Positions 6,641 to 60,330 of a stretch of DNA of 64,000 nucleotides are shown piece after piece; the first letter of the stretch is position 1, and every line of letters begins with the position of its first letter. A model generated the notes under the pieces. It searched no databases. It saw only the letters and a list, made by a program, of their open reading frames with translations, and was not told the origin of the DNA. The position numbers were made by a program, and so were the translations under genes. The stretch is from an uncultured virus (IMG/VR IMGVR_UViG_3300037601_000035) (lineage: Duplodnaviria > Heunggongvirae > Uroviricota > Caudoviricetes), in IMG/VR virus record IMGVR_UViG_3300037601_000035. The stretch is one strand, 5' to 3'.

Positions 6641-6653
6641 AGTTTTTTAGTAT

Positions 6654-6884: not shown

Positions 6885-6910
6885 TTTGTTTTTCTTATTT
6901 GTTTTTATTT

Positions 6911-11271: not shown

Positions 11272-11290
11272 TATTTTTCTATTTATAATT

Positions 11291-12456: not shown

Positions 12457-12474
12457 ATATCTATTTATTTAATT

Positions 12475-21776: not shown

Positions 21777-21809
21777 TCCTTACTAATTAATTTTAGTAAG
21801 GATTTTTTT
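21777..21809 (+). terminator. Intrinsic terminator after tmRNA
   Basis: TCCTTACTAA-N6-TTAGTAAGGA followed by T7. Confidence 0.8.
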
Positions 21810-21834
21810 ATTTAAAAAATTTTTCTTATATTTG
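21803..21834 (+). promoter_or_regulatory. Putative early promoter, copy 1
   Basis: TTTTTTTATTTAAAAAATTTTTCTTATATTTG; six copies in the window. Confidence 0.75.
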
Positions 21835-21863
21835 TTTCAAATGAAATTACAATAAAGGAAAAA

Positions 21864-25960: not shown

Positions 25961-26009
25961 TTTTTTTATTTAAAAAATTTTTCTTATATTACAACACATT
26001 CAATTAACA
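25961..26009 (+). promoter_or_regulatory. Putative early promoter, copy 2, with conserved leader
   Basis: Repeat motif plus ACAACACATTCAATTAACA. Confidence 0.8.
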
Positions 26010-33793: not shown

Positions 33794-33842
33794 TTTTTTT
33801 ATTTAAAAAATTTTTCTTATATTACATCACATTTAATTAACA
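33794..33842 (+). promoter_or_regulatory. Putative early promoter, copy 3
   Basis: Repeat motif plus leader. Confidence 0.8.
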
Positions 33843-40733: not shown

Positions 40734-40782
40734 TTTTTTTATTTAAAAAATTTTTCTTATATTACATCATATTCAATTAACA
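40734..40782 (+). promoter_or_regulatory. Putative early promoter, copy 4
   Basis: Repeat motif plus leader. Confidence 0.8.
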
Positions 40783-44806: not shown

Positions 44807-45063
44807 ATTTACTTCAAAAAATATTAAAAAGAAGATTTCTTAAAAAAGAAATAAAGGAGACAGATAAAAAGATTGAAGATCTTCAAGAAGATCTCGCAAT
44901 TTTTGGAATGGCATATTTGTTAGGTTCTAAAGAAGAAAGAAAACATACACATACTTATGCAAATAAAAGATATAAACAATATGAGGAAGAAGAAGATAAA
45001 TTAAAATCTCATAAAAATAATCTTCTACTAGAATTAAAAAGTATAAAATATTTAAGGTACTAA
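44803..45063 (+). CDS. Hypothetical coiled-coil protein
   Basis: Coupled ORF. Confidence 0.55.
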   Translation: MNLLQKILKRRFLKKEIKETDKKIEDLQEDLAIFGMAYLLGSKEERKHTHTYANKRYKQYEEEEDKLKSHKNNLLLELKSIKYLRY

Positions 45064-45064
45064 A

Positions 45065-45643
45065 ATGAAACAAACAGAATTTGTTTGTATGAAATCAGAT
45101 GTTCGAGAAACAGATTTATGGAGAGATATGTACGATACATCTGAAAAAGAGAAAAGAGAATTTATAAATAGAATGGATTCAAAATTAAAAGAGGTTGTTT
45201 TGGAAAAGTTTGCTACTTATTTAAAAGATGTTTTTAAAGTAAAAGAAGCAATAAAAATGCCAATGGAAAAATATACTTTAATTCATTTTAAAGTTGAAGA
45301 AGAAATTGAAAATATAATTTCTTCTAGATTTCCTGAAAATTATTTACTTCTTTTAGATTCGTCTGTCTCTATAGAAGAAAAAATTAAAATGTTGGTTTCC
45401 TTTTTAGAAGATCAGTACAAACAATATAATTTTAAAAATAAATTTGATCACTACCCTACTCCTTATAATTACAATCATACTTTTTATTCTTTAAGAAATG
45501 AATTAGAAGAAAATTATGAAGAAGAATGTAATGAAATATATTCTCAGATACAAGAAAATATTCCTTTGTATTCTAAAGGAGACATGTCTTATATTCTTAT
45601 TTTTTGGATTATGGTAAATAGATTTATGTCAAATGAAAATTAA
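45065..45643 (+). CDS. Paralog family B protein
   Basis: VEEEIENIISSRFPENYLLLLD..EEK. Confidence 0.65.
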   Translation: MKQTEFVCMKSDVRETDLWRDMYDTSEKEKREFINRMDSKLKEVVLEKFATYLKDVFKVKEAIKMPMEKYTLIHFKVEEEIENIISSRFPENYLLLLDSSVSIEEKIKMLVSFLEDQYKQYNFKNKFDHYPTPYNYNHTFYSLRNELEENYEEECNEIYSQIQENIPLYSKGDMSYILIFWIMVNRFMSNEN

Positions 45644-46169
45644 ATTTAAAATATTTAGGTACTTTGTTTTAAAACTATATTTAAAAGGATTTATAAAAGA
45701 AGATAATGATTATAGTAGATTAAAAATTATACAATTGTTTTTTCAGGTTTATGTTTTAGCTACTTCATTAATTAAAGAAGAAAAAATTTTTATTAATTCA
45801 TTTGAATGGAAAGCTTATCCTTTAGGACCAAAGGAAGAAGAAATCCATGAAGCATTAAAAGAAGATTATTTTAAAAGACAATTTAAAATAGACGATCATA
45901 AAACAACTATACTTTTATTTAAAGTTCTTGAATCTTCTGAAATAACAGAAGAAGATATAGATGATCCAGATGTTCCAGAAGAAATTAAAAATTTTATAAA
46001 TGCATACTTGGATAAATTTCCTCATTTGTTTGAATATGGAGTATCAGAATTAATTCAAATTTTACAAAAATATAAATGTTGGGAAAATGCATATAATAAC
46101 CGAACTAAAACAAATGTTATTACATTAAAAAGTATACAGGAAGAAAAGAATATTTACGTATACAAATAA
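45633..46169 (+). CDS. Panacea/SocA-like (DUF4065) protein
   Basis: RLKIIQLFF..Y, WKAYPLGP, SELI, WENAY. Confidence 0.55.
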   Translation: MKIKFKIFRYFVLKLYLKGFIKEDNDYSRLKIIQLFFQVYVLATSLIKEEKIFINSFEWKAYPLGPKEEEIHEALKEDYFKRQFKIDDHKTTILLFKVLESSEITEEDIDDPDVPEEIKNFINAYLDKFPHLFEYGVSELIQILQKYKCWENAYNNRTKTNVITLKSIQEEKNIYVYK

Positions 46170-46181
46170 GGAGAAAATTAA

Positions 46182-47138
46182 ATGAGAAATGATATTAAAG
46201 ATAGCTTAGTTTCTATAAAATATGGAAACATTAAAATACAATTAAAATATGATACTGAAACAGGTATACTTATATGGATTAATTCATCTAAAAATTTTCC
46301 AGAAAATATTGACGGAGGATTGGTTAAACCCTTTAATCATCGAACGAATGGAGCTTTAAAAATAAGTTTAGATACAGCAAATAAGATTTTAACTGCATTA
46401 GAAGATAAACCTAAATTAGAGTTCAATATAAAAACTCCTTACTATTCTTTAACAGTTTGGGAAACGGTAGTATCTATGGGAGTAGATGTTCATCAAATAG
46501 ATTCTTCTTTTGTTTATAATCATCCATCAAACGATTCATCAGAAGTATCTTTTTCTGGAGTAGATTTTTTGAAAACGGGACTAAGTTCAAAAGAAATGCC
46601 TAAAATTGGAAGTGTTGGATCTTTTAGTATTTTTAAAAAAGATTGTTCATATAGTTTTGAAGAAATGTATGAAGCTTTTAAAAGAGCAGAAAAAGAACAC
46701 AATCAAATGGGAGCGTTGAACAATAAAAACACAAAGGATGATTTACAAGTAACGTATACTTATAAAGGAAAAGAAATTTCTAAAGAAGAATATGAAAAAA
46801 GAAAGTCTTCTATTGAAGAAAAGAAAGATGTCATAGAAGATAAAAATAGTAAATTAGAAGAAGACCTGAATAAACAACTACAAATAGAATTAAAAAAATA
46901 TGGTGTAGTTGATGTTTATTATACTTCTCATACTATCTTAGTAAGACCTTCTATAAGTATTTTACTTCCTAAAAAAGTTAATGATACTTTTAGGGATGAC
47001 ATAACAAGAGAAGTATTAGATATTGTTCCACATAATATTTATATTAAATGGCATATTTTAGAAAATACTATAAAAGCCTTACATACTCAACTTGCGCCAA
47101 ACGATTCGCTTGATGCTACCGGAGAAGAACTATGTTAG
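46182..47138 (+). CDS. Paralog family A protein with C-terminal extension
   Basis: IQLKYDTET..W; TVWET..MGV; SYSFEEMYEAFKRAE. Confidence 0.65.
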   Translation: MRNDIKDSLVSIKYGNIKIQLKYDTETGILIWINSSKNFPENIDGGLVKPFNHRTNGALKISLDTANKILTALEDKPKLEFNIKTPYYSLTVWETVVSMGVDVHQIDSSFVYNHPSNDSSEVSFSGVDFLKTGLSSKEMPKIGSVGSFSIFKKDCSYSFEEMYEAFKRAEKEHNQMGALNNKNTKDDLQVTYTYKGKEISKEEYEKRKSSIEEKKDVIEDKNSKLEEDLNKQLQIELKKYGVVDVYYTSHTILVRPSISILLPKKVNDTFRDDITREVLDIVPHNIYIKWHILENTIKALHTQLAPNDSLDATGEELC

Positions 47139-47163
47139 AAGATAATCCAAATGAGGAATAAAT

Positions 47164-47709
47164 ATGGAAAAGAAAGACTTCGAGAATCTTTATAAAAAGA
47201 TAGATCACATTGTATCATACATAATAAGCAAAGAAAATGAAAAGATTGTACCTAAACATAGAATTTATCATTTGCTTTCAGATGGTGTAATTTTTTATTT
47301 AAAAAAATATTCTATTTTTATTGATCTAAAAAGTTTTGAACTTTCTAAAAGAGATCTTAAAAAATTAGTAGATGATGAAATATTAAATCAAGATCTTTAT
47401 CATACATTTAAAGATTCTATTTATTCTTATGTACTTGCTACTCCATTAAAAGATATAGAAATTTCAGAAGAAACTTTTAATGAAATAAAAAGAGAGTGGA
47501 GAAAAACTGTAATTCTAAATAAAATAGAAGAAAGAAAAAGCAAACTTTATTTTCAAACAAATAAAGAAAAATTTAAGAATATTTTAAAAGAAATAATTGA
47601 AAATAAAAAACGAATGCTGGAAGATACAAAACAAGAATATTTAAAAATACAAGAAACTTTAAAAAATGAATTAGGAAATGATTATTTAATAGGATTAGAA
47701 AATGAGTAA
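47164..47709 (+). CDS. Hypothetical protein
   Basis: GAGG RBS. Confidence 0.6.
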   Translation: MEKKDFENLYKKIDHIVSYIISKENEKIVPKHRIYHLLSDGVIFYLKKYSIFIDLKSFELSKRDLKKLVDDEILNQDLYHTFKDSIYSYVLATPLKDIEISEETFNEIKREWRKTVILNKIEERKSKLYFQTNKEKFKNILKEIIENKKRMLEDTKQEYLKIQETLKNELGNDYLIGLENE

Positions 47710-48109
47710 TAAAAAATACACGAGAGAAGAACTAATTTCTATATGCGAAGATGCTGTAGTACATCATTCAAATTGGCAAGATAGAGATAGTTATCTTTCC
47801 CAATTAAGCGTTCAAGCAATTTATAAAGGACTTACAGCAGGTTTAGATTTTACTATTGGAGATTCGACAACCTATAAATCAATTTGGATAACATTTACCC
47901 GTCCTATAAATATGGAAAAATTAGAAACTGGAAAATATTTAGAAATTTCTTCAAGAGAAGAATACTTTGAAGAATGTGATCCTGAAAGAGAAACCGAAAT
48001 GTTTGATAGTTATACAAATGGAATAGACTGGAACGGATCATATACAACTTCTTATTTACCTACAAGAAAACGATTAGAAGAAAGAGGACTAGGAGAAGAC
48101 TGGACGTGA
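47702..48109 (+). CDS. Conserved phage protein
   Basis: YTREELISICEDAVV..W.DRDS..YLPTRKRL..DW. Confidence 0.65.
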   Translation: MSNKKYTREELISICEDAVVHHSNWQDRDSYLSQLSVQAIYKGLTAGLDFTIGDSTTYKSIWITFTRPINMEKLETGKYLEISSREEYFEECDPERETEMFDSYTNGIDWNGSYTTSYLPTRKRLEERGLGEDWT

Positions 48110-48318
48110 AAAAACAGTTTTGTATTAAGATTTTAAAAGATGACAAGAAAATAGGATGGTGGAAAAAAGGATCTTCTACATATCCTCCTATTACAGAAGA
48201 TTTAAAAAGAGCTACTAAAATAGAAGATCAAAATATTGCTATGAATGCAATGCTAAGACTTTCAGAACTTTTTAGAGACTATAATTTTACTGTTCAAAAA
48301 CTTAAAAGTGTAAAATAA
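48106..48318 (+). CDS. Hypothetical protein
   Basis: GTGA-coupled ORF. Confidence 0.55.
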   Translation: MKKQFCIKILKDDKKIGWWKKGSSTYPPITEDLKRATKIEDQNIAMNAMLRLSELFRDYNFTVQKLKSVK

Positions 48319-48366
48319 TTTTTTTATTTAAAAATTTTTTCTTATATTACACTATATTCAATTAAC
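48319..48366 (+). promoter_or_regulatory. Putative early promoter, copy 5
   Basis: Repeat motif with one A>T change, plus leader. Confidence 0.8.
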
Positions 48367-48379
48367 TTTAGAGAGAAAA

Positions 48380-48778
48380 ATGGATTTCATATCAATACTA
48401 ATATCAACATTTATAATTTTTATATTAGGAACGGGCAGCGCTTTAACTTATATTTTTGGCGGTTATGCTGGAACTTTACTGGTAGATAAGAAATATAAAA
48501 AATCAATTATAATTACAAGTGCTATGATTTGTTCAGTTATTATTTTAAATAGTTTTTATAGTTTATCTGAATTGCCATTAGATTATTTTTATATTTGGAG
48601 AGTATGTTTTTTAGCAATATCTTCATTTTATATAATGTCTACAGATAAAATTACACCTCATGTAAAGAAATTTATTCCAGAAGAAAATGCAGGAAAAAGA
48701 ATTAAAATTTCTGTCAATGTAGCATTAGTACTAAATATTATTTTTTATATCACATATTTAATATCACAAGGAGCATAA
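48380..48778 (+). CDS. Four-TM membrane protein
   Basis: Four hydrophobic segments. Confidence 0.65.
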   Translation: MDFISILISTFIIFILGTGSALTYIFGGYAGTLLVDKKYKKSIIITSAMICSVIILNSFYSLSELPLDYFYIWRVCFLAISSFYIMSTDKITPHVKKFIPEENAGKRIKISVNVALVLNIIFYITYLISQGA

Positions 48779-48779
48779 A

Positions 48780-49901
48780 TTGGACATCACATATATTTAT
48801 GATAATGACATAGTAAATATTTCTAAAATAGACCCTACAAACGCGTCTAAAAAATTAAAACCGCTTATTTATACTATAATAGAAACTCAAGCAGGGTTTT
48901 GTTTAAAAATAGTAAATCAAAAATTTAAACTTCCTGAAAAATTCTATGGTCCAATACAGGACAGAGAAAATAGAATATGTAAATCTTATGAATCTAGAGA
49001 TTCTTCTTTGGGCATATTATTAACAGGATTAAAAGGAACTGGTAAATCTCTTTTAGCTAAGAAAATTTCAAATGTTTTTTTAGAAGAAAAAAATCTTCCT
49101 GTTATTTTAATAACTCAAGCCTTTTCTGGAGATAGTTTTTTTAATGTCATAAATTCATTAGGAGAATGTGTTTTAGTATTTGATGAATTTGCCAAAGTAT
49201 ATGGAAGACATGAAAATCAAGCAAGTTTGCTTTCATTATTTGATGGAGTAAATAGTGACTATAAAAGATTAATAATTTTAACAGAAAATAATGCTTATGA
49301 TGTTTGTAGGTATTTTAAAAATAGACCGGGCAGAATTCTTTATCACTATAAATATTCTAATTTAGATGTAGATACAGTTAAAGAATATTGTATAGATCAT
49401 GGAGTTCCTGAAAATCTTGCTAATGAATTAGCTTCTATGTCTAGTAGTATAGTAGACTTTAATTTTGATATTCTACAAGCATTGGTAGATGATTACAAAA
49501 TTCACAGAGAACCAAAGTTTTATAATTCATTTAAACATTTAAATGTTGAATTTATAGATAGAGGATATACTAAATTCAAAGTATCTAAATTATATTTAAA
49601 TGATAAAGAAGTTAAATTTAAACAAAAAAGACTTTTTGAAGATTTCATTGGAAATGGATGGAACACGAAGCTTCGTAAAGGATATTTAGAATTTGAAGAT
49701 GAAAAAATAGAAAAGATTTTATTCGGAGAAGAGTTAAACAGAGGATTTTCTTTAGATTCAGAAAACATTATTGAAAGACGGGAAGATAAATATGTACTAG
49801 AACGTAAATTAGAAAAAGATACTTTGATATTTATTTTAGAAGAAGATCCCGATTCAAAAGATAATTATATGCGTAAACCCTATTTAATAGAAGGTGTTTA
49901 A
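48780..49901 (+). CDS. AAA+ ATPase
   Basis: GLKGTGKS, VFDEFAK, LLSLFDG, NRPGRI. Confidence 0.88.
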   Translation: MDITYIYDNDIVNISKIDPTNASKKLKPLIYTIIETQAGFCLKIVNQKFKLPEKFYGPIQDRENRICKSYESRDSSLGILLTGLKGTGKSLLAKKISNVFLEEKNLPVILITQAFSGDSFFNVINSLGECVLVFDEFAKVYGRHENQASLLSLFDGVNSDYKRLIILTENNAYDVCRYFKNRPGRILYHYKYSNLDVDTVKEYCIDHGVPENLANELASMSSSIVDFNFDILQALVDDYKIHREPKFYNSFKHLNVEFIDRGYTKFKVSKLYLNDKEVKFKQKRLFEDFIGNGWNTKLRKGYLEFEDEKIEKILFGEELNRGFSLDSENIIERREDKYVLERKLEKDTLIFILEEDPDSKDNYMRKPYLIEGV

Positions 49902-50472
49902 AATGGAAGTAAGAAATTTATTTAGAAAAATAAAATATCCTATAGAATTATACGATAAAAATGGAAATCTAATATACCATGAAAATAGTTCAGGTTTCTG
50001 GACAAAGAGAGAATATGATAAAAATGGCAATCAAATTTATATGATAAATTCTATGGGACTTTGGGCAAAAAACGAATTTGACGACCAAGGAAATCAAATA
50101 TATTGGGAAAATAAATATAAAGTTTTTCAAGATGATAGAATAAACAAAGGAGTAAAAATGAGTACTGAACTAAAACAAAAATTACAAGAAAAAGTAGCTA
50201 GAAATGAACCTATACGTAAAGATCGTATAGAATTGGACATATATCACTTTATGTCTAAAGCTGCTGAAGAAGGAGCAATTTCTACTGTTATAGAAGGAGT
50301 AGAAGTTTCTACTCAAAAATATAATCAATCTCAATTTCAAATAGTGAAAGAATATTTAGATGAAAATGAAATCTATTATCGCGTTCTAAATACTTATAAA
50401 AACACAAATGGTAATGATACAAAGGATATTTTTATACAATGGGGAGAAAAAGAAGTAACCGATGAAAACTAG
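49894..50472 (+). CDS. YDxNGN-repeat protein with in-frame internal start at 50158
   Basis: Three YDKNGN.IY-type repeats; AAGGAG before MSTELK. Confidence 0.6.
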   Translation: MFKMEVRNLFRKIKYPIELYDKNGNLIYHENSSGFWTKREYDKNGNQIYMINSMGLWAKNEFDDQGNQIYWENKYKVFQDDRINKGVKMSTELKQKLQEKVARNEPIRKDRIELDIYHFMSKAAEEGAISTVIEGVEVSTQKYNQSQFQIVKEYLDENEIYYRVLNTYKNTNGNDTKDIFIQWGEKEVTDEN

Positions 50473-51535
50473 ATACATCCACGATAACGATAAAATATCT
50501 GTTATTAACTTTGCAGATAATTCGATTAAAGAAAAAATTTCACCTGGAGTTTATTCGGTAGAACATAGTCTTTCTTTAGGATATTTTTTAAAAATAAATA
50601 AACCTAAATTTGAGCTTCCTGAAAAAATATACGGAGATGTAGATAAAAGAATTTCTAGAATTATGAAAACTTATGAATCAAAAGATACTTCTTTAGGTGT
50701 TCTTTTGACAGGACTTAAAGGTTCTGGTAAAACTTTGTTAATTAAGAAATTAGCAAACACTTTTATAGAAGAAAAAGAACTCCCTATAGTTCTTATAAAT
50801 TCAAACTATACAGATGAACAATTTTTAAATTTTCTAAATTCGTTAAAAGAATGTGTTCTAGTATTCGATGAATTTGCAAAAAATTATCCTGATTTATATT
50901 ATGATGAAGAAGGTGGACAGAGTAAACTACTTTCATTATTTGATGGTGTAAATAGTTTTAAAAGATTAATTCTTCTTTCTGAAAACAAACTTCATAAAAT
51001 AAATGAATTTTACTTAAATAGACCAGGAAGAATTTATTATCATTTTACTTATGAAGAACTTTCAACTGATGTTATTAGAGATTATTGTGAAGATTTAAAT
51101 GTTCCAGAATCAATGATTCAAAAAATTATTCAAGTTTCTCCGTTAATTGAAATGAATTTTGATATTTTACAAACTATTGTAGAAGATTATTTAATTCATA
51201 AAGAAGAAAATATACATGAAATGTTAAAGATTCTAAATATTAGATATAGAAATTCTTTAATCAATTTTGAGTTGGCAAAAGTTTTAATCAATGATAAAGA
51301 AATAGAATATAAACTAAAACAAAAAAGCATTCCAGATTTTATAACAGAGGATGATTCTATTTGGGTATCTTCTCTAATAGAATGTGAAGAAGATATATCC
51401 AATCGCGATGGAAGATTTGATAAAAAACATATCATAGAACGAAAAGGCGATATTCTTATTTTAAGAAACGCAGAGATAACAATTCATTTAAAAAGAATAG
51501 TTCCTAATTTTATGAACTATAACACAATTTTATAA
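50462..51535 (+). CDS. AAA+ ATPase, paralog of 48780
   Basis: GLKGSGKT, VFDEFAK, LLSLFDG, NRPGRI. Confidence 0.88.
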   Translation: MKTRYIHDNDKISVINFADNSIKEKISPGVYSVEHSLSLGYFLKINKPKFELPEKIYGDVDKRISRIMKTYESKDTSLGVLLTGLKGSGKTLLIKKLANTFIEEKELPIVLINSNYTDEQFLNFLNSLKECVLVFDEFAKNYPDLYYDEEGGQSKLLSLFDGVNSFKRLILLSENKLHKINEFYLNRPGRIYYHFTYEELSTDVIRDYCEDLNVPESMIQKIIQVSPLIEMNFDILQTIVEDYLIHKEENIHEMLKILNIRYRNSLINFELAKVLINDKEIEYKLKQKSIPDFITEDDSIWVSSLIECEEDISNRDGRFDKKHIIERKGDILILRNAEITIHLKRIVPNFMNYNTIL

Positions 51536-51552
51536 AAAGAGGAGAATAAAAA

Positions 51553-52959
51553 ATGAGCGCAGATGTTGGAATAATTGTTGGAAGATTTCAGGTTCCTTAT
51601 TTACATGAAGGACATAAAAATACTATTCAAACAGTATTAGATAATCATAAACAAATTGCAATATTTTTAGGGGTAGGACATACGAGAGGACTTCCTAAAA
51701 ATCCTTATGACTACAACACTAGAAGAAATATGATGCAATCTACTTTTCCAGAAGTAGGACTTTCTATTCATTCTATAGGAGATAAAAGAAGTGATAAAGA
51801 ATGGTCTATTGAATTGGATAAAAGAATTTCAGAAATCTTTCCTGGAAGGTCAATAGTTCTTTATGGATCAAGAGATTCATTTATAAGTAGGTATCACGGA
51901 GTTCATGAAACTTTAGAACTTGAAACAGATGTATTTGTATCCGGAACAGAAATTAGAGAAGAACATAAAAATAGTTTACTTGCTGAAGAAGCATTTAGAA
52001 TTGGTATTAACTATTCAGTAAATGATAGATATTTTAATCCTATTCCAACTGTAGATATAGCAGTAATTAAAAGACAAGAAGAAAAAGTATTACTTGCTAG
52101 AAAGGACGGAGAAACTAAATATAGATTTATTGGAGGTTTCGTAGATACTACAGATGAAAGTTTAGAAAGAGCAGCAATAAGAGAATTAAAGGAAGAAGCA
52201 GGAAATGATATTGAAGTAAGTCAAGATATAAAATATGTTACTTCTAGATTAGTAGATGATTGGAGATACAGTGGTGAAGCTGTAAAGCCTTTAACTACTT
52301 TATATGCTGTAGAATATATGTGGGGAACCCCGAGACCTAGTGATGATATAGTTGAATTGAAATGGTTTGATTTAAATTCTTTAAGTTCTGATGATCTAAT
52401 GGATGAACATTTTATTTTAGCAGAAAGACTAAAAGAAAAACTGCATGATATTGATCTTTATAAAATTAAACAATACGAACCTACTTTAGATTTTGAAGAT
52501 GAAGATTTTACTCCAAAGAAAAGCATAGCAGAACGTTATGGCAAAAAGGAACCTACATGGAAAGAAAAATTAGATTTAAAAAATAATTCAAAAGAAATAG
52601 TAAAAGAAAATCTAAAAGATATTTTAAAAATAGCAGGAACTTATAAAAAAGCTGCTCAAATATCAGGACTTACTAGAGATCAAATACTATATAGAGCTAG
52701 AAAGTTAAAGGTAGGTGGTAAAAAAGGAAGACCTTCTTCAAAAAAGGATTCTACAAATGGAAGACTTTCAAACAGTCAACTTAATTGGAATATCAAACTG
52801 AGTACGAAGTTAAATAATCATTCTGAAATGGCTAGTAATTTAAGAGAGCTTTCTGACAAAGCAGATGGAAAAATTGCTAAAATGGCTAAAATATCAGGGA
52901 TGAGCTATGGACAAATCAATTATAGACTAAATAAATATGTTTATAATAATTTTATTTAA
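51553..52959 (+). CDS. nadM: Bifunctional NMN adenylyltransferase/ADP-ribose pyrophosphatase with C-terminal tandem Fis-type HTHs
   Basis: GRFQ..LHEGH, SGTEIR, Nudix box GGFVD..ESLERAAIRELKEEAG; two A.ISG....I.YR..K HTH-like segments. Confidence 0.9.
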   Translation: MSADVGIIVGRFQVPYLHEGHKNTIQTVLDNHKQIAIFLGVGHTRGLPKNPYDYNTRRNMMQSTFPEVGLSIHSIGDKRSDKEWSIELDKRISEIFPGRSIVLYGSRDSFISRYHGVHETLELETDVFVSGTEIREEHKNSLLAEEAFRIGINYSVNDRYFNPIPTVDIAVIKRQEEKVLLARKDGETKYRFIGGFVDTTDESLERAAIRELKEEAGNDIEVSQDIKYVTSRLVDDWRYSGEAVKPLTTLYAVEYMWGTPRPSDDIVELKWFDLNSLSSDDLMDEHFILAERLKEKLHDIDLYKIKQYEPTLDFEDEDFTPKKSIAERYGKKEPTWKEKLDLKNNSKEIVKENLKDILKIAGTYKKAAQISGLTRDQILYRARKLKVGGKKGRPSSKKDSTNGRLSNSQLNWNIKLSTKLNNHSEMASNLRELSDKADGKIAKMAKISGMSYGQINYRLNKYVYNNFI

Positions 52960-52970
52960 AGGTACATATC

Positions 52971-53165
52971 ATGTCACAAAAACATAATTTTAAAATAGGT
53001 GATATAGTGGTATTAAATTCAGGAGGACCTGATATGAAAATAATTGGAATACTTGAAGAAGATTTAGTATATCGCTCTATTGAATGTATGTGGAAAGATA
53101 ATAGAGAAATTTCTAAATTTCACAATTTTCATCCAGCAACAATACATTTAAAAGAGGAGAAATAA
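52971..53165 (+). CDS. DUF2158/YodC-like small protein
   Basis: FKIGDIVVLNSGGPDMKI..C.W. Confidence 0.75.
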   Translation: MSQKHNFKIGDIVVLNSGGPDMKIIGILEEDLVYRSIECMWKDNREISKFHNFHPATIHLKEEK

Positions 53166-53167
53166 AA

Positions 53168-53359
53168 ATGAAAAAATATTTAATTTTAATCGCTTTATTA
53201 TTTTTAATAAGCTGTAATGATAATCAAAATTCTAAAGAAGATTCTACAAAAGAACCTCAACAAGAATTACAATTTGATGAAAGAGATACTTTAGAAGCAA
53301 CTAGTCCTGAAGGAGAACTTCCTGAAGGAGAATATGAACACAATGGGCCTATTGCCTAG
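53168..53359 (+). CDS. Small lipoprotein
   Basis: MKKYLILIALLFLIS-C lipobox. Confidence 0.7.
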   Translation: MKKYLILIALLFLISCNDNQNSKEDSTKEPQQELQFDERDTLEATSPEGELPEGEYEHNGPIA

Positions 53360-53371
53360 GAGAAATAAAAA

Positions 53372-54865
53372 ATGAAGTTTGAATTATTATATGGATCGGA
53401 CTCTTATAAAGTCGGTCATCACCAACAATACCCAGAAGACGTAACTAAAATATACTCTTATTTTGAAGCAAGAGGATTTAAAGAACCTTTTATAACTGAA
53501 CCGTCTGTAGTAGTATATGGATTGGACTATCTTTTAGAAAATCTAGAAGGAATTCAATTTACTAAAGAAGGTATTGAAGAAGCAAAAGAATTCTATAAGA
53601 ATCATTTTGGTTATGAAGTATTTAATGAAGAAGGATTTAACTATCTTTTAGAAAAACATAACGGAACTTTACCTTTAAAAATTAAAGCAGTTCCGGAAGG
53701 ATCTGTAGTTCCAATTGGAAATGTTTTAATGACAGTAGAAAACACCGACTCTGATATGCCAGGAGAAACAGCTAAATGGTTAACTAATTACGTAGAAACT
53801 TATTTGACACATCTTTGGTATACTACTTCAGTAGCTACACTTTCAAGAGAAATTAAAGCACTAATTTCAGCTTTTGCTTTCTTAACTCTTTCTGCAGAAG
53901 AAATGGAAGCATATCTTCCTTTTGCATTACATGATTTTGGAATGAGAGGATCTGTTGGACACGAATCTGCATATCTTGCAGGAGCTGCTCATCTTATAAA
54001 CTTCTTAGGAACTGATACAACATCAGCTATGAGATTTATAGAAAAATTTCATGGAAAGGAAGAGCAAATTCCTGGTTATTCAGTAATGGCTTCGGAACAT
54101 TCTGTAATGACAATTAATGGAAAAGAAGGAGAAAAAGATCAATTCAAAAAATTAATTGACCTTTGTCCTGAAGAGAAAATAGTTTCTATAGTATCAGATT
54201 CTTATAACATTTATAATGTTGTAGAAAATTGGGTTTGTGGAGAATTTAAAGATGAAATTCTTTCAGGAACTAAAAAGATAGTTATTCGACCGGATTCAGG
54301 AGATCCTAAAAAAGTACTTACTAGAATACTAAATATCCTAGAAGACAATTTAGAAATATCTATAAATGAAAGAGGATATAAAGTCCTTCCACCTCAAATA
54401 GGTTTAATCTGGGGAGACGGTATTGGATTAGAAGATATTCGAAATATTTTATCTATGATGACTACTTCTAATTGGGCAACTTCAAATATAGTATTTGGTA
54501 TGGGTGGAGGACTTCATCAAAAAGTAAATAGAGATTCTTTAAAGTTTGCTTTTAAAGCATGTTATGCAGAAAAAAGAGATGGAACAACAATTGATATTTA
54601 CAAAGATCCTATTACTGATCAAGGAAAGTCTTCTAAGAAAGGAAAACTAAAACTTATAGAAGATTCTAAAACAGGAGATTTAGTAACTGTTTCTTCTTCT
54701 ACAGATCCTAAACTATATGCAATGTCCGAAGAACTAGGAGATGATCAACTAAAAATTGCTTTCTTAAATGGAAAAATAGTTAGACAAAAATCTAAATTTT
54801 CTGAAATAAGAGAAAGAGCAAAGTTAACTCCACCTAAAACAACTATTATAGATATAACAAATTAA
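53372..54865 (+). CDS. nadV: Nicotinamide phosphoribosyltransferase
   Basis: DSYKVGH, LHDFGMRG, ASEHS, VSDSY, IRPDSGDP, WGDGI, FGMGGGL, KDPITD.GK.SKKG. Confidence 0.95.
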   Translation: MKFELLYGSDSYKVGHHQQYPEDVTKIYSYFEARGFKEPFITEPSVVVYGLDYLLENLEGIQFTKEGIEEAKEFYKNHFGYEVFNEEGFNYLLEKHNGTLPLKIKAVPEGSVVPIGNVLMTVENTDSDMPGETAKWLTNYVETYLTHLWYTTSVATLSREIKALISAFAFLTLSAEEMEAYLPFALHDFGMRGSVGHESAYLAGAAHLINFLGTDTTSAMRFIEKFHGKEEQIPGYSVMASEHSVMTINGKEGEKDQFKKLIDLCPEEKIVSIVSDSYNIYNVVENWVCGEFKDEILSGTKKIVIRPDSGDPKKVLTRILNILEDNLEISINERGYKVLPPQIGLIWGDGIGLEDIRNILSMMTTSNWATSNIVFGMGGGLHQKVNRDSLKFAFKACYAEKRDGTTIDIYKDPITDQGKSSKKGKLKLIEDSKTGDLVTVSSSTDPKLYAMSEELGDDQLKIAFLNGKIVRQKSKFSEIRERAKLTPPKTTIIDITN

Positions 54866-54872
54866 AGGGAAA

Positions 54873-55292
54873 ATGGAAATAAAAGGAAAAATAGGTAGAG
54901 GATCATCTGTAAGTTTAACATGTTGTACCGATATAGAAGACATTACAATTGATGATAAATCACTTTATCAGATGTTAATGGAATTATTCGATGAAGATGA
55001 ACAAGAGCATTGGGAAAATCACGTAAACGGTAAAAGACTTTTTATGAGGTATGTTGTAACAGAAGAAAAATTTGATGAAACTTATTCTTTTGAACAAGTA
55101 GTTGCCGAAACAGTAAATTCAATGTTATATTCTGAACATATTTCAGGATGCTATTCTGAATGGACATGTGGATATGGTGGATTTGATTATATTGTACAAG
55201 ACGGACGTTCTATATTTACAGAATTAGAAAGTCATATTGGAAAACATTTACATTTAAAATTAGATTTCAATGAGGAATTTGAAGATGAGTAA
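54873..55292 (+). CDS. Hypothetical protein, paralog of 37252
   Basis: YSEWTCGY..GRSIFTELESHIGKHLHL. Confidence 0.65.
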   Translation: MEIKGKIGRGSSVSLTCCTDIEDITIDDKSLYQMLMELFDEDEQEHWENHVNGKRLFMRYVVTEEKFDETYSFEQVVAETVNSMLYSEHISGCYSEWTCGYGGFDYIVQDGRSIFTELESHIGKHLHLKLDFNEEFEDE

Positions 55293-55734
55293 AATTTGGA
55301 AATTTGGAAACGAAGACGATAATATTAATGTAGTAAAGATATTAGTAGAAATTGCAAATGCTATGGAAAAAGATACAGATGGTGAATTTAAATGTTCTGT
55401 TTCATTTTTTGATTCAAATACTTATAGTGACTCGTGTAGAATTTCATATATTCTTAGTATATCTGATAAACATTCTACATATTCTTTATTAAAATTAAAT
55501 TTTAATTATTATACGTCTAAAAACAATATAGAAATACAAATTGCACCAGCTGAGTTAATTAATCCAAATAAAATTAGTTACGTATTTTGGGTTAAAACAG
55601 AAGAAGAATTGAAAAGTAAATTAATTGAATGGATCCAATGTGATGAAATAGCAAACCCTATATCAAGTATGATTCATCATCTACGCGCTATATCAAAAAG
55701 TAAAGAAGAATACGCAAAATTAAATACTAAGTAA
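55270..55734 (+). CDS. Hypothetical protein (likely start 55285)
   Basis: ORF in operon. Confidence 0.6.
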   Translation: MRNLKMSKIWKFGNEDDNINVVKILVEIANAMEKDTDGEFKCSVSFFDSNTYSDSCRISYILSISDKHSTYSLLKLNFNYYTSKNNIEIQIAPAELINPNKISYVFWVKTEEELKSKLIEWIQCDEIANPISSMIHHLRAISKSKEEYAKLNTK

Positions 55735-55746
55735 AATGGAAATACA

Positions 55747-56072
55747 ATGAAAATTTCAAAAATTAAACAAAAATTAGAACACACCATATAGAAAATTCTG
55801 TTATTAGTGATTCAGAAATAAAAGAAGGATTAAAACAATCTCTCGATTCTGAAACTATAAATGCTCTAAAAGAAGCTCTTAAAATAGTAAATAATTATGA
55901 ACTTATGAAAGACATCTCAAAAATAGAAGCAAAAATAAAAGAAACAAAACAAAAGAAAATATTTTTCGTAGATGTTCAAAATTTTGATACTGCCTCCAAA
56001 TTAAGAACTATTGAACTTGATCTAGAAAAAGAACTTACTAAAAAACGAGATTTATTAGAAAAATCAGAATAA
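55747..56072 (+). pseudogene. Frameshifted gene with UVR-like C-terminal coiled coil
   Basis: ATG frame stops at 55789; removing one CA from ACACAC joins it to an open frame ending ..QNFDTASKLRTIE.. Confidence 0.5.
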
Positions 56073-56093
56073 TAAAAAATAATTTCCTCCTCT

Positions 56094-56130
56094 GGGCCTC
56101 ATAGATTAATTCTGGAGGCCTTTTGTTTTT
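56094..56130 (+). terminator. Intrinsic terminator
   Basis: GGCCTC..AGA-loop-TCT.GAGGCC followed by TTTTGTTTTT. Confidence 0.75.
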
Positions 56131-56230
56131 AATACAGTTACATACATCATCACACATAAAATTAAACCTGATGCTCCTCTGCACTCCCTAGTGCATTTAG
56201 AATAAAACTTTAGAAATATTTAAAATTTAA

Positions 56231-56279
56231 TTTTTTTATTTAAAAAATTTTTCTTATATTACATCATATTCAATTAACA
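56231..56279 (+). promoter_or_regulatory. Putative early promoter, copy 6
   Basis: Repeat motif plus leader. Confidence 0.8.
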
Positions 56280-56298
56280 ATTATAGGAAAAGTAAAAT

Positions 56299-56697
56299 AT
56301 GGAAAAGACATTACAAGAAATGTTTGATGAACTTACCTTTAAGTTTGCACAGTATACAGAAATTACTGATCTTGCCTTTAAAGCAAATCAAGGTTATGAT
56401 GACGGAAATTACAAAAGATTTTTTCTTTGTTTAGATACTCATGATTTTTGGTTGGTTAGAATCCAAGAAGGATGGAACCAAGAATATGAAAGACAGGAAG
56501 GAATGTGGTTATTAGAAAGAGACAAAATCGAAAAAGATTTTAAAGGTGAAGATGTTACTTTTGAGAAGCTTATAGATATATTGGAAAACGATTCGTTTGA
56601 GAATTGGGACGTCTATGAAAGTGAAGATTTAGACGAATTACTTACTGATTATGTTGACGGCGGTTACGGTATTAATAACTTTAAAATAGAGGTTTAA
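56299..56697 (+). CDS. Acidic hypothetical protein
   Basis: First gene after promoter motif. Confidence 0.65.
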   Translation: MEKTLQEMFDELTFKFAQYTEITDLAFKANQGYDDGNYKRFFLCLDTHDFWLVRIQEGWNQEYERQEGMWLLERDKIEKDFKGEDVTFEKLIDILENDSFENWDVYESEDLDELLTDYVDGGYGINNFKIEV

Positions 56698-56698
56698 A

Positions 56699-57034
56699 AT
56701 GAATTTATTAGATGAAAAATTAGAATTGTATAAAAAAGAAGTAGAGACTTTAGAAAAAAAGAATTTTAATAAATTGAAAGAAGAATTTGTTGGTCGCTAT
56801 ATAGAAACATCTTTTATCGTAGGTAAAATTAAAGATATTACTACTAATGGACCATTCTTTAAAGAATCTTTGAGAGATGTTGTTTTGGTTATTTCAGGAA
56901 TTGATAGAAATGGACAACGTACATCTTTTGATTTACTAGTAAACAAAGTAGGATTTTCTCTTATATCTGAAGAAGAATTTATGACTGCTACTAAGGAAAT
57001 ATTTGAAGAAGCGATTGAAAAAGTAAAAGGATAA
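56699..57034 (+). CDS. Hypothetical protein
   Basis: GAGG RBS. Confidence 0.6.
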   Translation: MNLLDEKLELYKKEVETLEKKNFNKLKEEFVGRYIETSFIVGKIKDITTNGPFFKESLRDVVLVISGIDRNGQRTSFDLLVNKVGFSLISEEEFMTATKEIFEEAIEKVKG

Positions 57035-57050
57035 TTTAGGAGAAATAAAA

Positions 57051-57263
57051 ATGAAATTTAAGAAAATAGATTTTTTAGTAGGTATTTTTCTTCCTCCTAT
57101 TTTAATGCTTTTATGTTTTTTAATTATTACAGGATCTCTAAATGAAACTTTTAGTCTGTTAAAAAATTTTAATCATACGTTTTTATTAGTGCTTTTATGG
57201 ATAGTAGAATCCATAGTATTTACAATAGTTAGTTTTAATGTAAGAATTGGATGGAGAAAATAA
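57051..57263 (+). CDS. Two-TM protein
   Basis: AGGAG RBS; hydrophobic. Confidence 0.6.
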   Translation: MKFKKIDFLVGIFLPPILMLLCFLIITGSLNETFSLLKNFNHTFLLVLLWIVESIVFTIVSFNVRIGWRK

Positions 57264-57717
57264 AATGCTTGCAATAGTTTTAAGTATGTTAATTGGTAGT
57301 TTTGCTGTTTCTCTATTTGATGATAAAAAAAGATTTGAGGTTATAGCTGTTACTCTTATTATTCTTACTTGTATTAATGTTTTTTTATCCCTTTGTGTAA
57401 GTGCATTTAATACTGAAAAAATAAAAGTACAGGAATTTCCTTGTAAAATTTCAAATATAAAAACAGTAATTGACGAACGAGACAACCTTTCGTATGTAAT
57501 ACTGAATAAAAATGAAACATACTCTGTAGAAGAGAAAAAAATTAAATTTATTTTTGGTTCTACTAAGTATGATAAAAACACAATTGTTCAATTTAAAGAT
57601 AGAGTAAAACCTTCTATACAAAAATTAGATGATAGAGAATTGTTATATTTATTTAATTTAGATAGCTATGAATATGAAGTTCACCTAGTGGAGAAAAACA
57701 ATGGAAAAATTAAATGA
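57247..57717 (+). CDS. Membrane protein (likely start 57265)
   Basis: Two N-terminal TMs. Confidence 0.6.
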   Translation: MDGENKMLAIVLSMLIGSFAVSLFDDKKRFEVIAVTLIILTCINVFLSLCVSAFNTEKIKVQEFPCKISNIKTVIDERDNLSYVILNKNETYSVEEKKIKFIFGSTKYDKNTIVQFKDRVKPSIQKLDDRELLYLFNLDSYEYEVHLVEKNNGKIK

Positions 57718-57898
57718 AATAATTCTAGAAGATTCTTATAGAGTCTATTATGGACAATTATTTGTAGCAGATGGAAAAATTATAAGATGCGATATTATGG
57801 GAACGGTAGCAGATCTTAAAGAAAAATTAAATGCGAAAGAAATTAAAAACTGTGATATAAGTTCTAGGTACACTAATCAATTAAAAAAAGAAAAATAA
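57701..57898 (+). CDS. Hypothetical protein
   Basis: GGAG RBS. Confidence 0.6.
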   Translation: MEKLNEIILEDSYRVYYGQLFVADGKIIRCDIMGTVADLKEKLNAKEIKNCDISSRYTNQLKKEK

Positions 57899-57905
57899 TA
57901 GTTGT

Positions 57906-58169
57906 ATGAGTATTAATGATAAAAATGATTTAATAAAATCTGTTCTAAAACTAATTGATAAAAAACAAATAACTTTAAATACAATGATTTGGAAAGTGTT
58001 TACTTCATTTGTATTTGCTCATATTTATACATTTCTTGCAGTTGCTTTAAATAAAGAACATTCTATAGCATTTTGGGTATTCTGGGGAATGGGCGCACTA
58101 TTAGTATTAGTAAGATTATTGATGGCAAGTTTAATATTGTGGGTGCAAATAAATTATGGAAAAAATTAG
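57906..58169 (+). CDS. Two-TM protein
   Basis: Hydrophobic segments. Confidence 0.55.
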   Translation: MSINDKNDLIKSVLKLIDKKQITLNTMIWKVFTSFVFAHIYTFLAVALNKEHSIAFWVFWGMGALLVLVRLLMASLILWVQINYGKN

Positions 58170-58178
58170 AGATAAAAA

Positions 58179-58646
58179 ATGAAAATATTATTAACACGAG
58201 AAGATTTACTTGATATAGATAAAGATATAGAAGATATACAACTATCTGATTTTAAATCCTGGTCTCCAGATACAAAGACAGTAATTAATGCTGATATTAT
58301 AACATTTGTAGATGACAATGGTGAAACTAAAGATTTAAAACATAGGTGGAAAACTAACCCAGATATGGAATTTTTTAGAACCGTAGTAGAAGGTTATGAA
58401 GGTAAATATAATTTTTCATGTTTTAAAAATACAGAACCTATAGAAATTGGAGATTATTTTCTAATGTTTTTTGGTGGTATAGCAGATGTTCAAATATGTG
58501 ACTCAGAATCTATCAAAGAAGAAATTAATAAAAATGATAGGCAGTCGTCAGGACTTGGCGATTTTGTCACAGGTTTTTGGAGAAATTGTTATAAAATTGA
58601 ACAGACAGATTTTAATATCGAAGACAAAGTTTCGCAAGAACAATAA
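58179..58646 (+). CDS. Hypothetical protein
   Basis: ORF in operon. Confidence 0.6.
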   Translation: MKILLTREDLLDIDKDIEDIQLSDFKSWSPDTKTVINADIITFVDDNGETKDLKHRWKTNPDMEFFRTVVEGYEGKYNFSCFKNTEPIEIGDYFLMFFGGIADVQICDSESIKEEINKNDRQSSGLGDFVTGFWRNCYKIEQTDFNIEDKVSQEQ

Positions 58647-58680
58647 AATCAAAAAGAATGGTAAAAATTAAGGGATTTTT

Positions 58681-59163
58681 ATGGGAATAACTAAACCACC
58701 AAGAAAGGGACCATCTTTGAAATATATCCAATTAATGGAAAAAATATTTCATAAAAAAGAAACTTGTTCATTTAGAACAAATAAGTATAAAGAATGGGAA
58801 GAAAAATACGAAAAAAATAAACGATCTTTAATAAATTTCCAAAATAAAATAGAAGTTCTTTTAGCAGATCTTTATTATGAAGAATATCTATCTTTACAAG
58901 AATCTTCTTTAAGTCAATTGGAAAAAATTGAAATTTTAGAAAGTATTTTAAAGGATTCATTATCTAAAGAATATGAAGAAGAAAAGAAAATACTGAAATC
59001 TAATAAATCAAATCAAAAAGGTTTATTTAATTTGTTGCTTGAAGATGATTTTAATTTTAATAAATTTTTATATTTTAGAACATTCATTGATGAAGTAACA
59101 GATAAAAAGATTTTAAAGGACTATGGAAAACCTGACGAATTACACCCAAGAAAAATAAAATAA
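58681..59163 (+). CDS. Paralog family B protein
   Basis: FQNKIEVLLADLYYEEYLSL..LEKIEIL. Confidence 0.6.
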   Translation: MGITKPPRKGPSLKYIQLMEKIFHKKETCSFRTNKYKEWEEKYEKNKRSLINFQNKIEVLLADLYYEEYLSLQESSLSQLEKIEILESILKDSLSKEYEEEKKILKSNKSNQKGLFNLLLEDDFNFNKFLYFRTFIDEVTDKKILKDYGKPDELHPRKIK

Positions 59164-59567
59164 TGAATATTTTTAAAATAGAAGAAATACAAAATAAAAT
59201 AAATTTTTTAATAACTGAGTTATCTAAACCTACTTCAACAGAAAAAGAAAATCTTAGAATTATTTGTAAAGAATTTATAGAAAATCTTATTGTATATTTA
59301 AATGTATCAAAAAATCCAGAGTTAAATATTTATTCATTAGATGAAGAATGTATTTGTATTTCTGCATGGTTAGATTGTGTCGAAGTAAATGCTGAATTAT
59401 TCTCGTTTGAAAAAGAACCTGAAGTAGAATTAATAGTTAGAGCAACACAAGGAAGACATATTGAAAATGAATTTAAAGAAGGATATTTTAAAAGTATAAA
59501 TAGAAAACAATTTAAAGAATTATTTGATTTTATATCAATAGAAATTAATAAACATATAGGAGATTAA
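59163..59567 (+). CDS. Hypothetical protein, paralog of 20184
   Basis: KEFIENL..IYSLDEECICIS. Confidence 0.65.
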   Translation: MNIFKIEEIQNKINFLITELSKPTSTEKENLRIICKEFIENLIVYLNVSKNPELNIYSLDEECICISAWLDCVEVNAELFSFEKEPEVELIVRATQGRHIENEFKEGYFKSINRKQFKELFDFISIEINKHIGD

Positions 59568-59568
59568 C

Positions 59569-60330
59569 ATGTTAACAATAGACTTAGAACAGAAATTATT
59601 AAAAATGAGAGAGAAAGAAACTGAAGAAAGTTCTTTTATAGTAGAACATTTTAAAGATGTTTTAGAAGATGCAGTAGAAGAAGATAAAGAGATTTTGTCT
59701 GAAGCAGGTTTTTCTTTTTCTCATTATGAGAAAGCAAAAGAAAATACTGAAAGAAAATTTGGTAAAAATTTAGATACTAAAAGAATTTTTAGTAAATCAG
59801 AAATTAAAAAGCTTTGTTTAAATTATAATTTAAGATTTGTTGAAACTCAATATTATAAAGGAACTATCCCACCAGAGCTTCCTCAAAAAATAAAAGAAGC
59901 AAAAGAAAATATTGGAACAGATATTAACCATGATGATTACTTTATAGTTGCTCCTCTGAATTCTTTAAAACTGGAAAAAGAACCAAAGGATCCTTTAATG
60001 TTTATAAAATTAACCGATGAATTTTATTATTTAGTTCATAAATGGGGAAATGATCTTTCTATAACAAATAGAATTTCAGGATTTATTGATAGTGGATATT
60101 TAATGAGATATTTTCTATTATTTGTTCCTTTACTTATTCTTATTGCATCAATACTAGGAACTATGGGAATTATTCCTTATATAATTTCTTATGAGGATAT
60201 ATTGATAAAAAGAATAGCAGGAAACGTAGGTTTCAGTTTAATAGGGTTATTAATTGTAGGATATATCACATATTTCATAGGATCAGATCCTGAAATATAT
60301 CATAGAAGGTGGAACACTCATTATGAATAA
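59569..60330 (+). CDS. Conserved membrane protein
   Basis: IKKLCLNYNLRF..YKG.IP..DPLMF..YYLVHKWGNDL plus two TMs. Confidence 0.7.
   Translation: MLTIDLEQKLLKMREKETEESSFIVEHFKDVLEDAVEEDKEILSEAGFSFSHYEKAKENTERKFGKNLDTKRIFSKSEIKKLCLNYNLRFVETQYYKGTIPPELPQKIKEAKENIGTDINHDDYFIVAPLNSLKLEKEPKDPLMFIKLTDEFYYLVHKWGNDLSITNRISGFIDSGYLMRYFLLFVPLLILIASILGTMGIIPYIISYEDILIKRIAGNVGFSLIGLLIVGYITYFIGSDPEIYHRRWNTHYE

Follow-up and report, generated by a model that had tools for sequence, protein, structure and literature searches.

A phage NatV enzyme with a C-terminal tail of two HTH_8-like repeats: a candidate link between NAD+ synthesis and phage DNA

Phage NatV and the bacterial NAD enzymes joined to DNA-binding domains

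The two-protein system NARP2 enables phages to restore the NAD+ that is destroyed by host defence. It comprises a nicotinamide mononucleotide (NMN) adenylyltransferase fused to a Nudix hydrolase (Nmnat-Nudix) and a nicotinamide phosphoribosyltransferase (Nampt), represented by NatV and NadV of Vibrio phage KVP40. NARP2 is reported to overproduce NAD+, to use up phosphoribosyl pyrophosphate (PRPP), and to have been toxic when cloned in E. coli (bioRxiv 10.1101/2024.02.11.579819). Here, a natV gene is described at positions 51553-52959 (+ strand) of a 64,000-nucleotide stretch of DNA, hereafter the window, from an uncultured tailed phage (IMG/VR record IMGVR_UViG_3300037601_000035). Its product continues past the Nudix domain into a tail that contains two repeats resembling the helix-turn-helix (HTH) family HTH_8. 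While NatV and NARP2 are already known, this C-terminal double-HTH tail is the new part.

Bacteria possess two regulators with which the phage protein invites comparison. NadR, an NAD-responsive repressor, combines an HTH domain, an NMN adenylyltransferase, and a ribosylnicotinamide kinase, and is counted with BirA among the “trigger enzymes”; NrtR couples a Nudix-like ADP-ribose sensor to a C-terminal winged HTH. The likeness to NadR lies in the covalent joining of an NMN adenylyltransferase to a (here putative) HTH, such that an enzyme could also read NAD status on DNA. NadR differs, however, in having an N-terminal HTH of another type and a kinase domain, and in lacking a Nudix domain. The phage protein is an analogue of NadR and not a member of its family, scoring 12.5 bits against a cut-off of 341 with TIGR01526, with no kinase domain found and the HTH located C-terminally. 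Like NrtR, it places a predicted DNA-binding domain C-terminal to a Nudix domain, tying NAD metabolism to DNA, but it adds an NMN adenylyltransferase and has two HTH_8-like repeats instead of a winged helix. Membership of the NrtR family was likewise rejected, as no winged-helix model matched above its cut-off and the Nudix box is intact and of catalytic type.

Two further likenesses concern the tail itself. As in Fis and NtrC, the stretch matched by the HTH_8 profile corresponds to the recognition helix and the helix preceding it (the second helix), and the second repeat lies at the extreme C-terminus. HTH_8 domains usually follow a sigma-54 AAA+ domain or stand as the Fis homodimer, whereas here they would form a tandem pair in one chain behind a metabolic enzyme. 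GIY-YIG and LAGLIDADG homing endonucleases with NUMOD1 modules occupy the same position in related phages (the flanks of natV, in 4/79 loci) and also possess modular HTH DNA-binding tails, but the phage tail is without NUMOD1, NUMOD3, or nuclease signal.

The gene is a single open reading frame (ORF) of 468 codons plus stop, whose coordinates had been given exactly in a preliminary description of the locus, and no competing ORF of at least 40 residues overlaps it on either strand. The ORF, its two catalytic domains, and its partner gene are as follows.

51553-52959, + strand: whole ORF, 468 residues plus stop; NatV (NMN adenylyltransferase and Nudix) with putative C-terminal double-HTH tail
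51559-52002, + strand: NMN adenylyltransferase domain, about residues 3-150; phrog_395, NF003791, and PRK13793; columns GRFQ..LH..H and SGT..R kept
52048-52398, + strand: Nudix hydrolase domain, residues 166-282; PF00293; Nudix box RE..EE.G kept
53372-54865, + strand: NadV (nicotinamide phosphoribosyltransferase; NAMPT_N and NAPRTase); PF04095 E 5.9e-39, PF18127 E 2.6e-29, phrog_448 E 1.1e-144

Judged by its sequence, the phage NatV is intact over residues 1-296; as the Nmnat half of NARP2, it should form NAD+ from NMN and ATP and hydrolyse ADP-ribose. PF00293 (NUDIX) matches residues 166-282 at E 1.3e-12 (48.3 bits; cut-off 21.1), the phage cytidyltransferase family phrog_395 matches residues 3-72 at E 1.5e-13, and the MutT/Nudix family phrog_1198 also matches; the NCBIfam NMN adenylyltransferase models NF003791 and PRK13793 align to residues 3-136 and 4-150, respectively. 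In an alignment of 18 NatV sequences, 59 columns are invariant, and the protein keeps every one of them; nucleotidyltransferase residues are among these, as are R210, E211, E214, E215, and G217 of the Nudix box. The bacterial equivalog models (PRK05379 set) are not reached, with NF003785 the best at 49.3 bits against a cut-off of 418; given scores so far below these cut-offs and homologues at E 1e-113 to 1e-69, the protein is a member of the phage clade and not a bacterial equivalog. Since nadV is encoded with it, starting 412 nt downstream of the natV ORF on the same strand, the two form the NAD+-rebuilding pair of NARP2, in the same arrangement as KVP40, where the same two-domain enzyme has NadV close by in one unit.

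The tail distinguishes this protein from its relatives. Of 8,000 candidates scored in a homology search, 1,505 reached E <=0.001. The best 119 of them, the query aside, are 292-348 residues long and cover 58-66% of the query, and many are annotated at source as “bifunctional NMN adenylyltransferase/nudix hydrolase”. A scan of viral contigs gave 284 NatV relatives, from which 80 loci were kept, one of them being the same phage, thus leaving 79 related loci; in all 79, the natV ORF measures 300-351 residues and is without such a tail. The 30 named ESM Atlas clusters are all NUDIX proteins (with or without CTP_transf_like) of about 300 residues. The 172 extra residues therefore have no C-terminal DNA-binding counterpart in these three sets, and the earlier statement that NadM-Nudix proteins usually stop after the Nudix domain holds for both the homologues and the loci.

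The C-terminal tail: repeats, constraint, and HTH assignment

The length of the tail, 172 residues (297-468), follows from the alignment to the closest homologue (P0002, 330 residues, 59% identical), which ends at residue 296; the extension had been noticed before and is present, although its length had been put at about 165 residues. It can be divided into five parts, for which codon and residue changes refer to a natural variant described below.

52441-52578, + strand: linker 1, residues 297-342; acidic and variable; 9 nonsynonymous versus 3 synonymous codon changes
52579-52707, + strand: HTH repeat 1 (putative), residues 343-385; basic; sole residue change I349V; 2 synonymous codons
52708-52755, + strand: lysine-rich arm KVGGKKGRPSSKKDST, residues 386-401; GRP core; 0 residue changes, 1 synonymous
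52756-52812, + strand: linker 2, residues 402-420; variable; 5 residue changes
52813-52956, + strand: HTH repeat 2 (putative), residues 421-468; HTH_8 on residues 436-462; residues 429-468 unchanged

The internal repeat is real: residues 340-396 align to residues 416-468 with 17/42 identities at E 1e-5 (BLASTP, single comparison). The two similar segments on which the preliminary description had built its proposal lie where it placed them, at residues 362-385 (52636-52707) and 439-462 (52867-52938), with KKGRPSSKK between them; by reading, the arm resembles an AT-hook in its GRP tripeptide between lysines. The tail bears a net charge of +15, and repeat 1 together with the arm contains 17 lysines and arginines versus 5 aspartates and glutamates. 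Its G+C content (0.275, against 0.273 for the genome) and its third-position G+C (GC3) match those of the genome, and thus give no sign of a recent foreign origin.

A second natural form of the gene permits a view of constraint. Variant P0121, a member of the same 90% cluster encoded on a 7,870-base contig of run X13 from an aquatic metagenome, is identical at 447/468 residues (96%) with equal length and no indels, and its DNA differs at 51 of 1,407 bases without a gap. The codon counts take in 40 of these 51 differences and reproduce 15 of the 21 residue changes, the other six lying after 52760. Eighteen of the 21 changes fall in the tail, namely nine in linker 1, one (I349V) in repeat 1, five at residues 402-411, and three at residues 426-428, with none at residues 350-401 or 429-468. 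The enzyme part shows 13 synonymous and 3 nonsynonymous codon changes, a ratio from which linker 1 (9 nonsynonymous, 3 synonymous) departs at Fisher P 0.006. The two 24-residue HTH segments named beforehand, fixed ahead of the substitution test, took none of the 18 tail changes in 48 of the 172 positions (P 0.0019), while the repeats as delimited by BLAST took 4 of the 18 in 83 positions (P 0.017). From these sequences, the linkers look neutral, and the pattern suggests that the HTH segments are kept by selection while the linkers drift. Resting on one pairwise comparison, such evidence of constraint is suggestive, not conclusive.

Assignment of the repeats to HTH_8 draws on several methods that agree with one another, each of them marginal. 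With the whole protein, the Pfam model HTH_8 (PF02954) matches at E 3.1e-5 (24.1 bits; cut-off 22) over two stretches, the best being residues 436-462, which stops 6 residues short of the C-terminus. When all six frames of the 211,581-base genome were scanned with PF02954, no locus other than this one matched; in that scan, repeat 2 scores 21.2 bits, or 22.1 with its neighbours. A profile built from the two repeats found three chains among the PDB sequences at E <=10, of which 2m8g_X (E 0.18) and NifA 9qq6_C (E 0.43) are DNA-binding domains of the HTH_8 family, with alignments that span the recognition helix, and the third is a chance match; a stretch Q-[IL]-x-Y-R is common to both repeats and both HTH_8 chains. 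ESM Atlas leads for residues 330-391 and 407-464 are clusters of HTH_8, AAA_lid_14, and homeodomain-like proteins, at template-modelling (TM) scores of only about 0.3. A winged-helix identity was considered and rejected, HTH_24 being the only such model to match the tail at E <=10; its 14.6-15.7 bits lie under its own cut-off (21.9) and under the HTH_8 score.

Relatives of the tail were absent from every search made. With phmmer against 1.84 billion cluster representatives, none was returned at E <=0.001; a homologue search with residues 300-468 among proteins of similar length retrieved the query itself only; tblastn against 50,697 phage records gave none at E <=10; the phage's own genome holds no paralogue; and the 79 related loci (597,225 bases) contain no similar sequence, the best E being 0.13. 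The architecture of NMN adenylyltransferase, Nudix, and two HTH-like repeats is present here as had been reported, and no description of a NatV or NadM-Nudix protein fused to an HTH was found in the parts of the literature consulted, with the caveat that the supplementary tables of the NARP preprint might hold such variants. Longer NatV fusions are found as singletons only, with other partners: P0122 (539 residues) bears a C-terminal P-loop NTPase-like domain, P0123 (535 residues) an unknown N-terminal domain of 220 residues, and P0124 (644 residues) is a fusion of NMN adenylyltransferase and NAMPT without a Nudix match, each being a single sequence for which a gene-calling or assembly artefact is possible.

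The natV-nadV unit, its promoter motif, and related loci

The window is the reverse strand of positions 81201-145200 in a virus record of 211,581 bases, rated 82% complete, with a G+C content of 27% (0.273). The record represents a large pond phage with myovirus-type tail genes (tail sheath and baseplate) and helicase PHROGs. A second viral contig (L002) carries this region too, differing at one of 9,404 bases, and megablast of window positions 45000-60000 against phage records gave no match. In this genome, natV belongs to a co-directional unit (48380-55734) of two phrog_2376 AAA ATPases, natV with its putative HTH tail, two small ORFs, nadV, and two ORFs without a family match. The unit is headed by a copy of a 48-nt promoter/leader motif. 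The repeated early promoter mentioned in the preliminary description does exist, with 12 genome copies at <=4 mismatches in a 31-nt core, six in the window and six elsewhere in the record.

48319-48366, + strand: promoter/leader motif copy, 1 of 12; heads unit 48380-55734; candidate target only
21803-21850, 25961-26008, 33794-33841, 40734-40781, 48319-48366, 56231-56278: motif copies in the window, with a weaker copy at 47288-47320
52971-53359, + strand: two small ORFs between natV and nadV; a 64-residue DUF2158 protein and a 63-residue ORF without a family match

The motif consists of a T/A-tract block, then CTTATATTACA, then ATT.AATTAACA, and by reading, an ATG follows about 20-40 nt downstream in all 12 copies. 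A hairpin of the CTCTACTAA...TTAGTAGAG type precedes three of the copies. Across a 40-kb block in which small genes lie on the + strand, the copies mark off units of 4-8 kb.

Several neighbours merit mention in their own right. The AAA ATPases directly upstream of natV (window 48780-49901 and 50462-51535; phrog_2376 at E 1.6e-73 and 4.8e-82) are paralogues that have in common a 226-nt DNA repeat of 72% identity, and the 192-residue ORF between them (49894-50472) contains, by reading, three copies of a DKNGN/DDQGN-IY motif. By reading, the 63-residue ORF upstream of nadV (window 53168-53359) begins like a lipoprotein, with a hydrophobic stretch that runs up to a Cys; its tail is acidic. Outside the window, an adenylation domain of NAD-dependent DNA ligase (PF01653, 66.8 bits) is encoded at G000:C1:211128-211580 (L006), truncated at the end of the record; the phage's own ligation would need NAD+. 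Tail-sheath paralogues of great length (1,187 and 1,118 residues) are encoded on the - strand at window positions 1126-4689 and 6963-10319; they match the sheath family phrog_34521 in their C-terminal 340 or so residues only, their N-terminal 750-830 residues being without assignment. A family of direct repeats (57-77 nt, 63-81% identity) occurs at window positions 6582-6658, 6826-6902, 10904-10960, 11213-11289, and 12398-12474, each close to, or right at, the start of an ORF on the minus strand by reading of the ORF coordinates, so that several genes would have a common N-terminus and upstream region.

Proximity of the two NAD+ genes is the rule among the 79 related loci: nadV lies <=3.5 kb from natV in 75, and follows it on the same strand in 73, with a gap of <=150 nt in 36, 151-400 nt in 22, and >400 nt in 15. 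The neighbour set comprised 184 distinct ORFs of 45-260 residues <=1 kb from natV, grouped into 171 clusters at 70% identity, of which 25 were dropped (<55 residues, or minus strand and <80 residues) and 146 were scanned with Pfam. Among the matches were the SLOG families YAcAr (one cluster, 8 loci) and YpsA (one), along with YqeY (5), YopX (4), an extra Nudix (2), and homing endonucleases. The SLOG genes are a 112-residue ORF between natV and nadV (L012:4448-4783, cluster of 8 loci; YAcAr E 1.5e-16) and a YpsA-type gene upstream of natV (L085:1434-1880); a review proposes that SLOG domains sense NAD+/ADP-ribose derivatives (PMC9503650).

Homing-endonuclease domains lie <=1 kb from natV in 4/79 loci (GIY-YIG in L034 and L080, LAGLIDADG_3 in L082, NUMOD1 in L028 and L034). 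In related phages, genes for GIY-YIG and LAGLIDADG homing endonucleases thus land beside natV as well as between natV and nadV.

L028:3624-4235 (-), L034:2678-3454, L080:2884-3489, L082:1764-2543 (-): endonuclease ORFs, by Pfam
L010:4480-5427, L046:5187-5999, L076:3296-4120: endonuclease-like ORFs in the gap, by reading only; >260 residues, outside the Pfam scan

Possible roles and origins of the tail

We consider the chances about even that the tail is a functional, selectively kept, two-part DNA-binding module on an intact NatV. For it we infer DNA binding, a DNA target, and ligand coupling in the following manner. NatV of a single phage lineage would have gained a C-terminal tail of 172 residues, ordered as an acidic variable linker, a basic first HTH, a lysine-rich GRP arm, a variable linker, and a second HTH of the Fis/NtrC HTH_8 type. 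The tail would place the enzyme on AT-rich phage DNA, where, in the manner of a trigger enzyme, operator occupancy would vary with the ligand bound by the catalytic domains (NMN, ATP, NAD+, or ADP-ribose) and would thereby match the costly NARP2 unit to need. The best candidate operator would be the 12-copy early promoter/leader, which also heads natV's own unit. As had been suggested beforehand, the two repeats might be arranged in the manner of a Fis dimer. By analogy with NadR, NrtR, and BirA, feedback control of the NARP2 unit or of early promoters is the most likely use of such a tail; as a second option, it may tether NAD+ synthesis near the NAD-dependent ligase. The NAD+ overproduction, PRPP use, and cloning toxicity reported for NARP2 supply a rationale for regulation, a subject of which no mention was found in the parts of the literature consulted. 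The more ambitious proposition, that a counter-defence NatV doubles as a transcription factor that reads NAD+, NMN, or ADP-ribose in its catalytic sites and, by way of the tandem HTHs, controls the regulon of the 12-copy early promoter or the NARP2 unit to which it belongs, appears quite unlikely at present.

A number of observations weigh against a regulatory DNA-binding module. The double-HTH architecture is known from a single phage lineage. The HTH_8 margin is thin, repeat 2 alone scoring 21.8 bits, under the cut-off of 22, and repeat 1 alone having no HTH_8 match, only 15-bit matches, at that position, to HTH_28 and an AsnC-type HTH. With E. coli Fis as the subject, BLASTP aligned nothing over the HTH, and hhalign, although it paired the repeats in register with Fis residues 70-96 (E 0.01), assigned a probability of only 4%; because of these two results, “Fis-type” is valid at the level of the family profile only. 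The two Fis-type HTHs of the preliminary description hold up as a repeat pair that passes HTH_8 on the summed score of both repeats. A reliable fold did not emerge, AlphaFold2 with a single sequence giving an unusable full-length model (mean predicted local distance difference test, pLDDT, of 35) and, for residues 330-468, long merged helices at pLDDT 61. The tail as a whole evolves about 10 times faster than the enzyme part (18/172 versus 3/296 substitutions), and the selection test concerns one pair of variants, with 10-11 of the 51 nucleotide differences outside the codon counts. Lastly, none of the 146 natV-neighbour ORFs in the 79 loci matched a regulator-type HTH at E <=0.001, so the HTH fusion is not part of a wider pattern; with no other NatV bearing an HTH, comparative support for a link between NatV and DNA is lacking. 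The earlier proposal of an NAD-sensing regulator is supported in its architecture and its repeated promoter, and by the intact enzyme and the conservation of the HTH segments between the two variants; the neighbour survey speaks against a general association of NatV with regulators.

The borderline profile scores lend themselves to another explanation, namely that the tail is a charged helical extension which does not bind DNA but serves oligomerisation, protein contact (e.g., with the ATPases or the ligase), or solubility, and that HTH_8 is a false positive. Single repeats under the cut-off, a model of long helices only, and the missing pairwise match to Fis are what such a tail would show, as are the generic helical matches in fold comparisons: Foldseek of the tail model against PDB gave nothing at E <=0.001 (the best being sigma factors, E 0.45), and a wide VIA-align search gave Z <=6.4. 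A phmmer search of PDB sequences with the whole tail and each repeat produced chance matches only (an uncharacterised protein at E 0.18, designed repeat proteins, and a ribosomal protein). Nevertheless, Pfam, the genome-unique PF02954 match, the PDB profile, ESM Atlas, and hhalign weakly agree on place and register, and the first HTH with the arm is strongly basic; we regard a tail of this kind as improbable. A similarly low standing is given to descent from a homing endonuclease that inserted between natV and nadV, lost its nuclease, and left its HTH modules fused in frame, whether as a remnant or domesticated. In homing endonucleases, the DNA-binding region typically has HTH modules in tandem, joined by basic linkers, and this counts in favour of such an origin, as does the hot spot around natV, with Pfam-assigned ORFs in 4/79 loci and further gap ORFs in L010, L046, and L076 that are endonuclease-like by reading; the NUMOD1-bearing endonucleases beside natV leave room for a mobile-element origin. 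Against it, NUMOD1 (PF07453) finds nothing in the tail or the whole phage genome at E <=10, whereas the modules of the related loci score 24.6-26.5 bits, Pfam detects neither a NUMOD nor a nuclease family in the tail, linker 1 shows no nuclease remnant, and the tail is unlike any sequence in the 79 loci. HTH cores conserved between variants also fit poorly with a decaying remnant. An endonuclease remnant had been named beforehand as one of the findings that would overturn the regulator proposal; its genomic context does occur in relatives, its NUMOD1 signal does not occur in the tail, and a very diverged endonuclease origin may be entertained.

Accidental fusion, to which we would assign a small though not negligible likelihood, supposes that a small double-HTH gene, encoding a phage transcription factor, once stood on its own between natV and nadV, where insertions are common, and that after loss of its start or of the stop ahead of it the gene came to be translated as the tail of NatV, its HTH part retaining a DNA-binding job of its own with no coupling to NAD chemistry. 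The distance from the NatV core to nadV is about 930 nt here (the tail and two small ORFs) as against a gap of <=150 nt in 36/73 loci, relatives carry varied inserted genes in this gap, linker 1 looks neutral in its excess of nonsynonymous changes, and P0122, P0123, and P0124 are other one-off NatV fusions. On the other hand, no free-standing relative of the tail turned up among the 1.84 billion representatives, the phage records, or the related loci at the thresholds given above; by reading, the tail has no ATG before residue 426; and the fused state is retained in both variants with 0 indels.

Should the tail prove inert, or merely a fused neighbour, the protein would be a one-lineage curiosity. 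A NatV with its own DNA-binding module would, by contrast, offer a testable handle on whether phages regulate or localise NAD+ synthesis and, if true, would add to bacterial NadR and NrtR a further, independent fusion of an NAD enzyme with an HTH. If the transcription-factor proposition were also true, NatV would represent an independently built equivalent, in a virus, of NadR and NrtR, by which a phage could sense NAD+-depleting host immunity and answer it by transcription.

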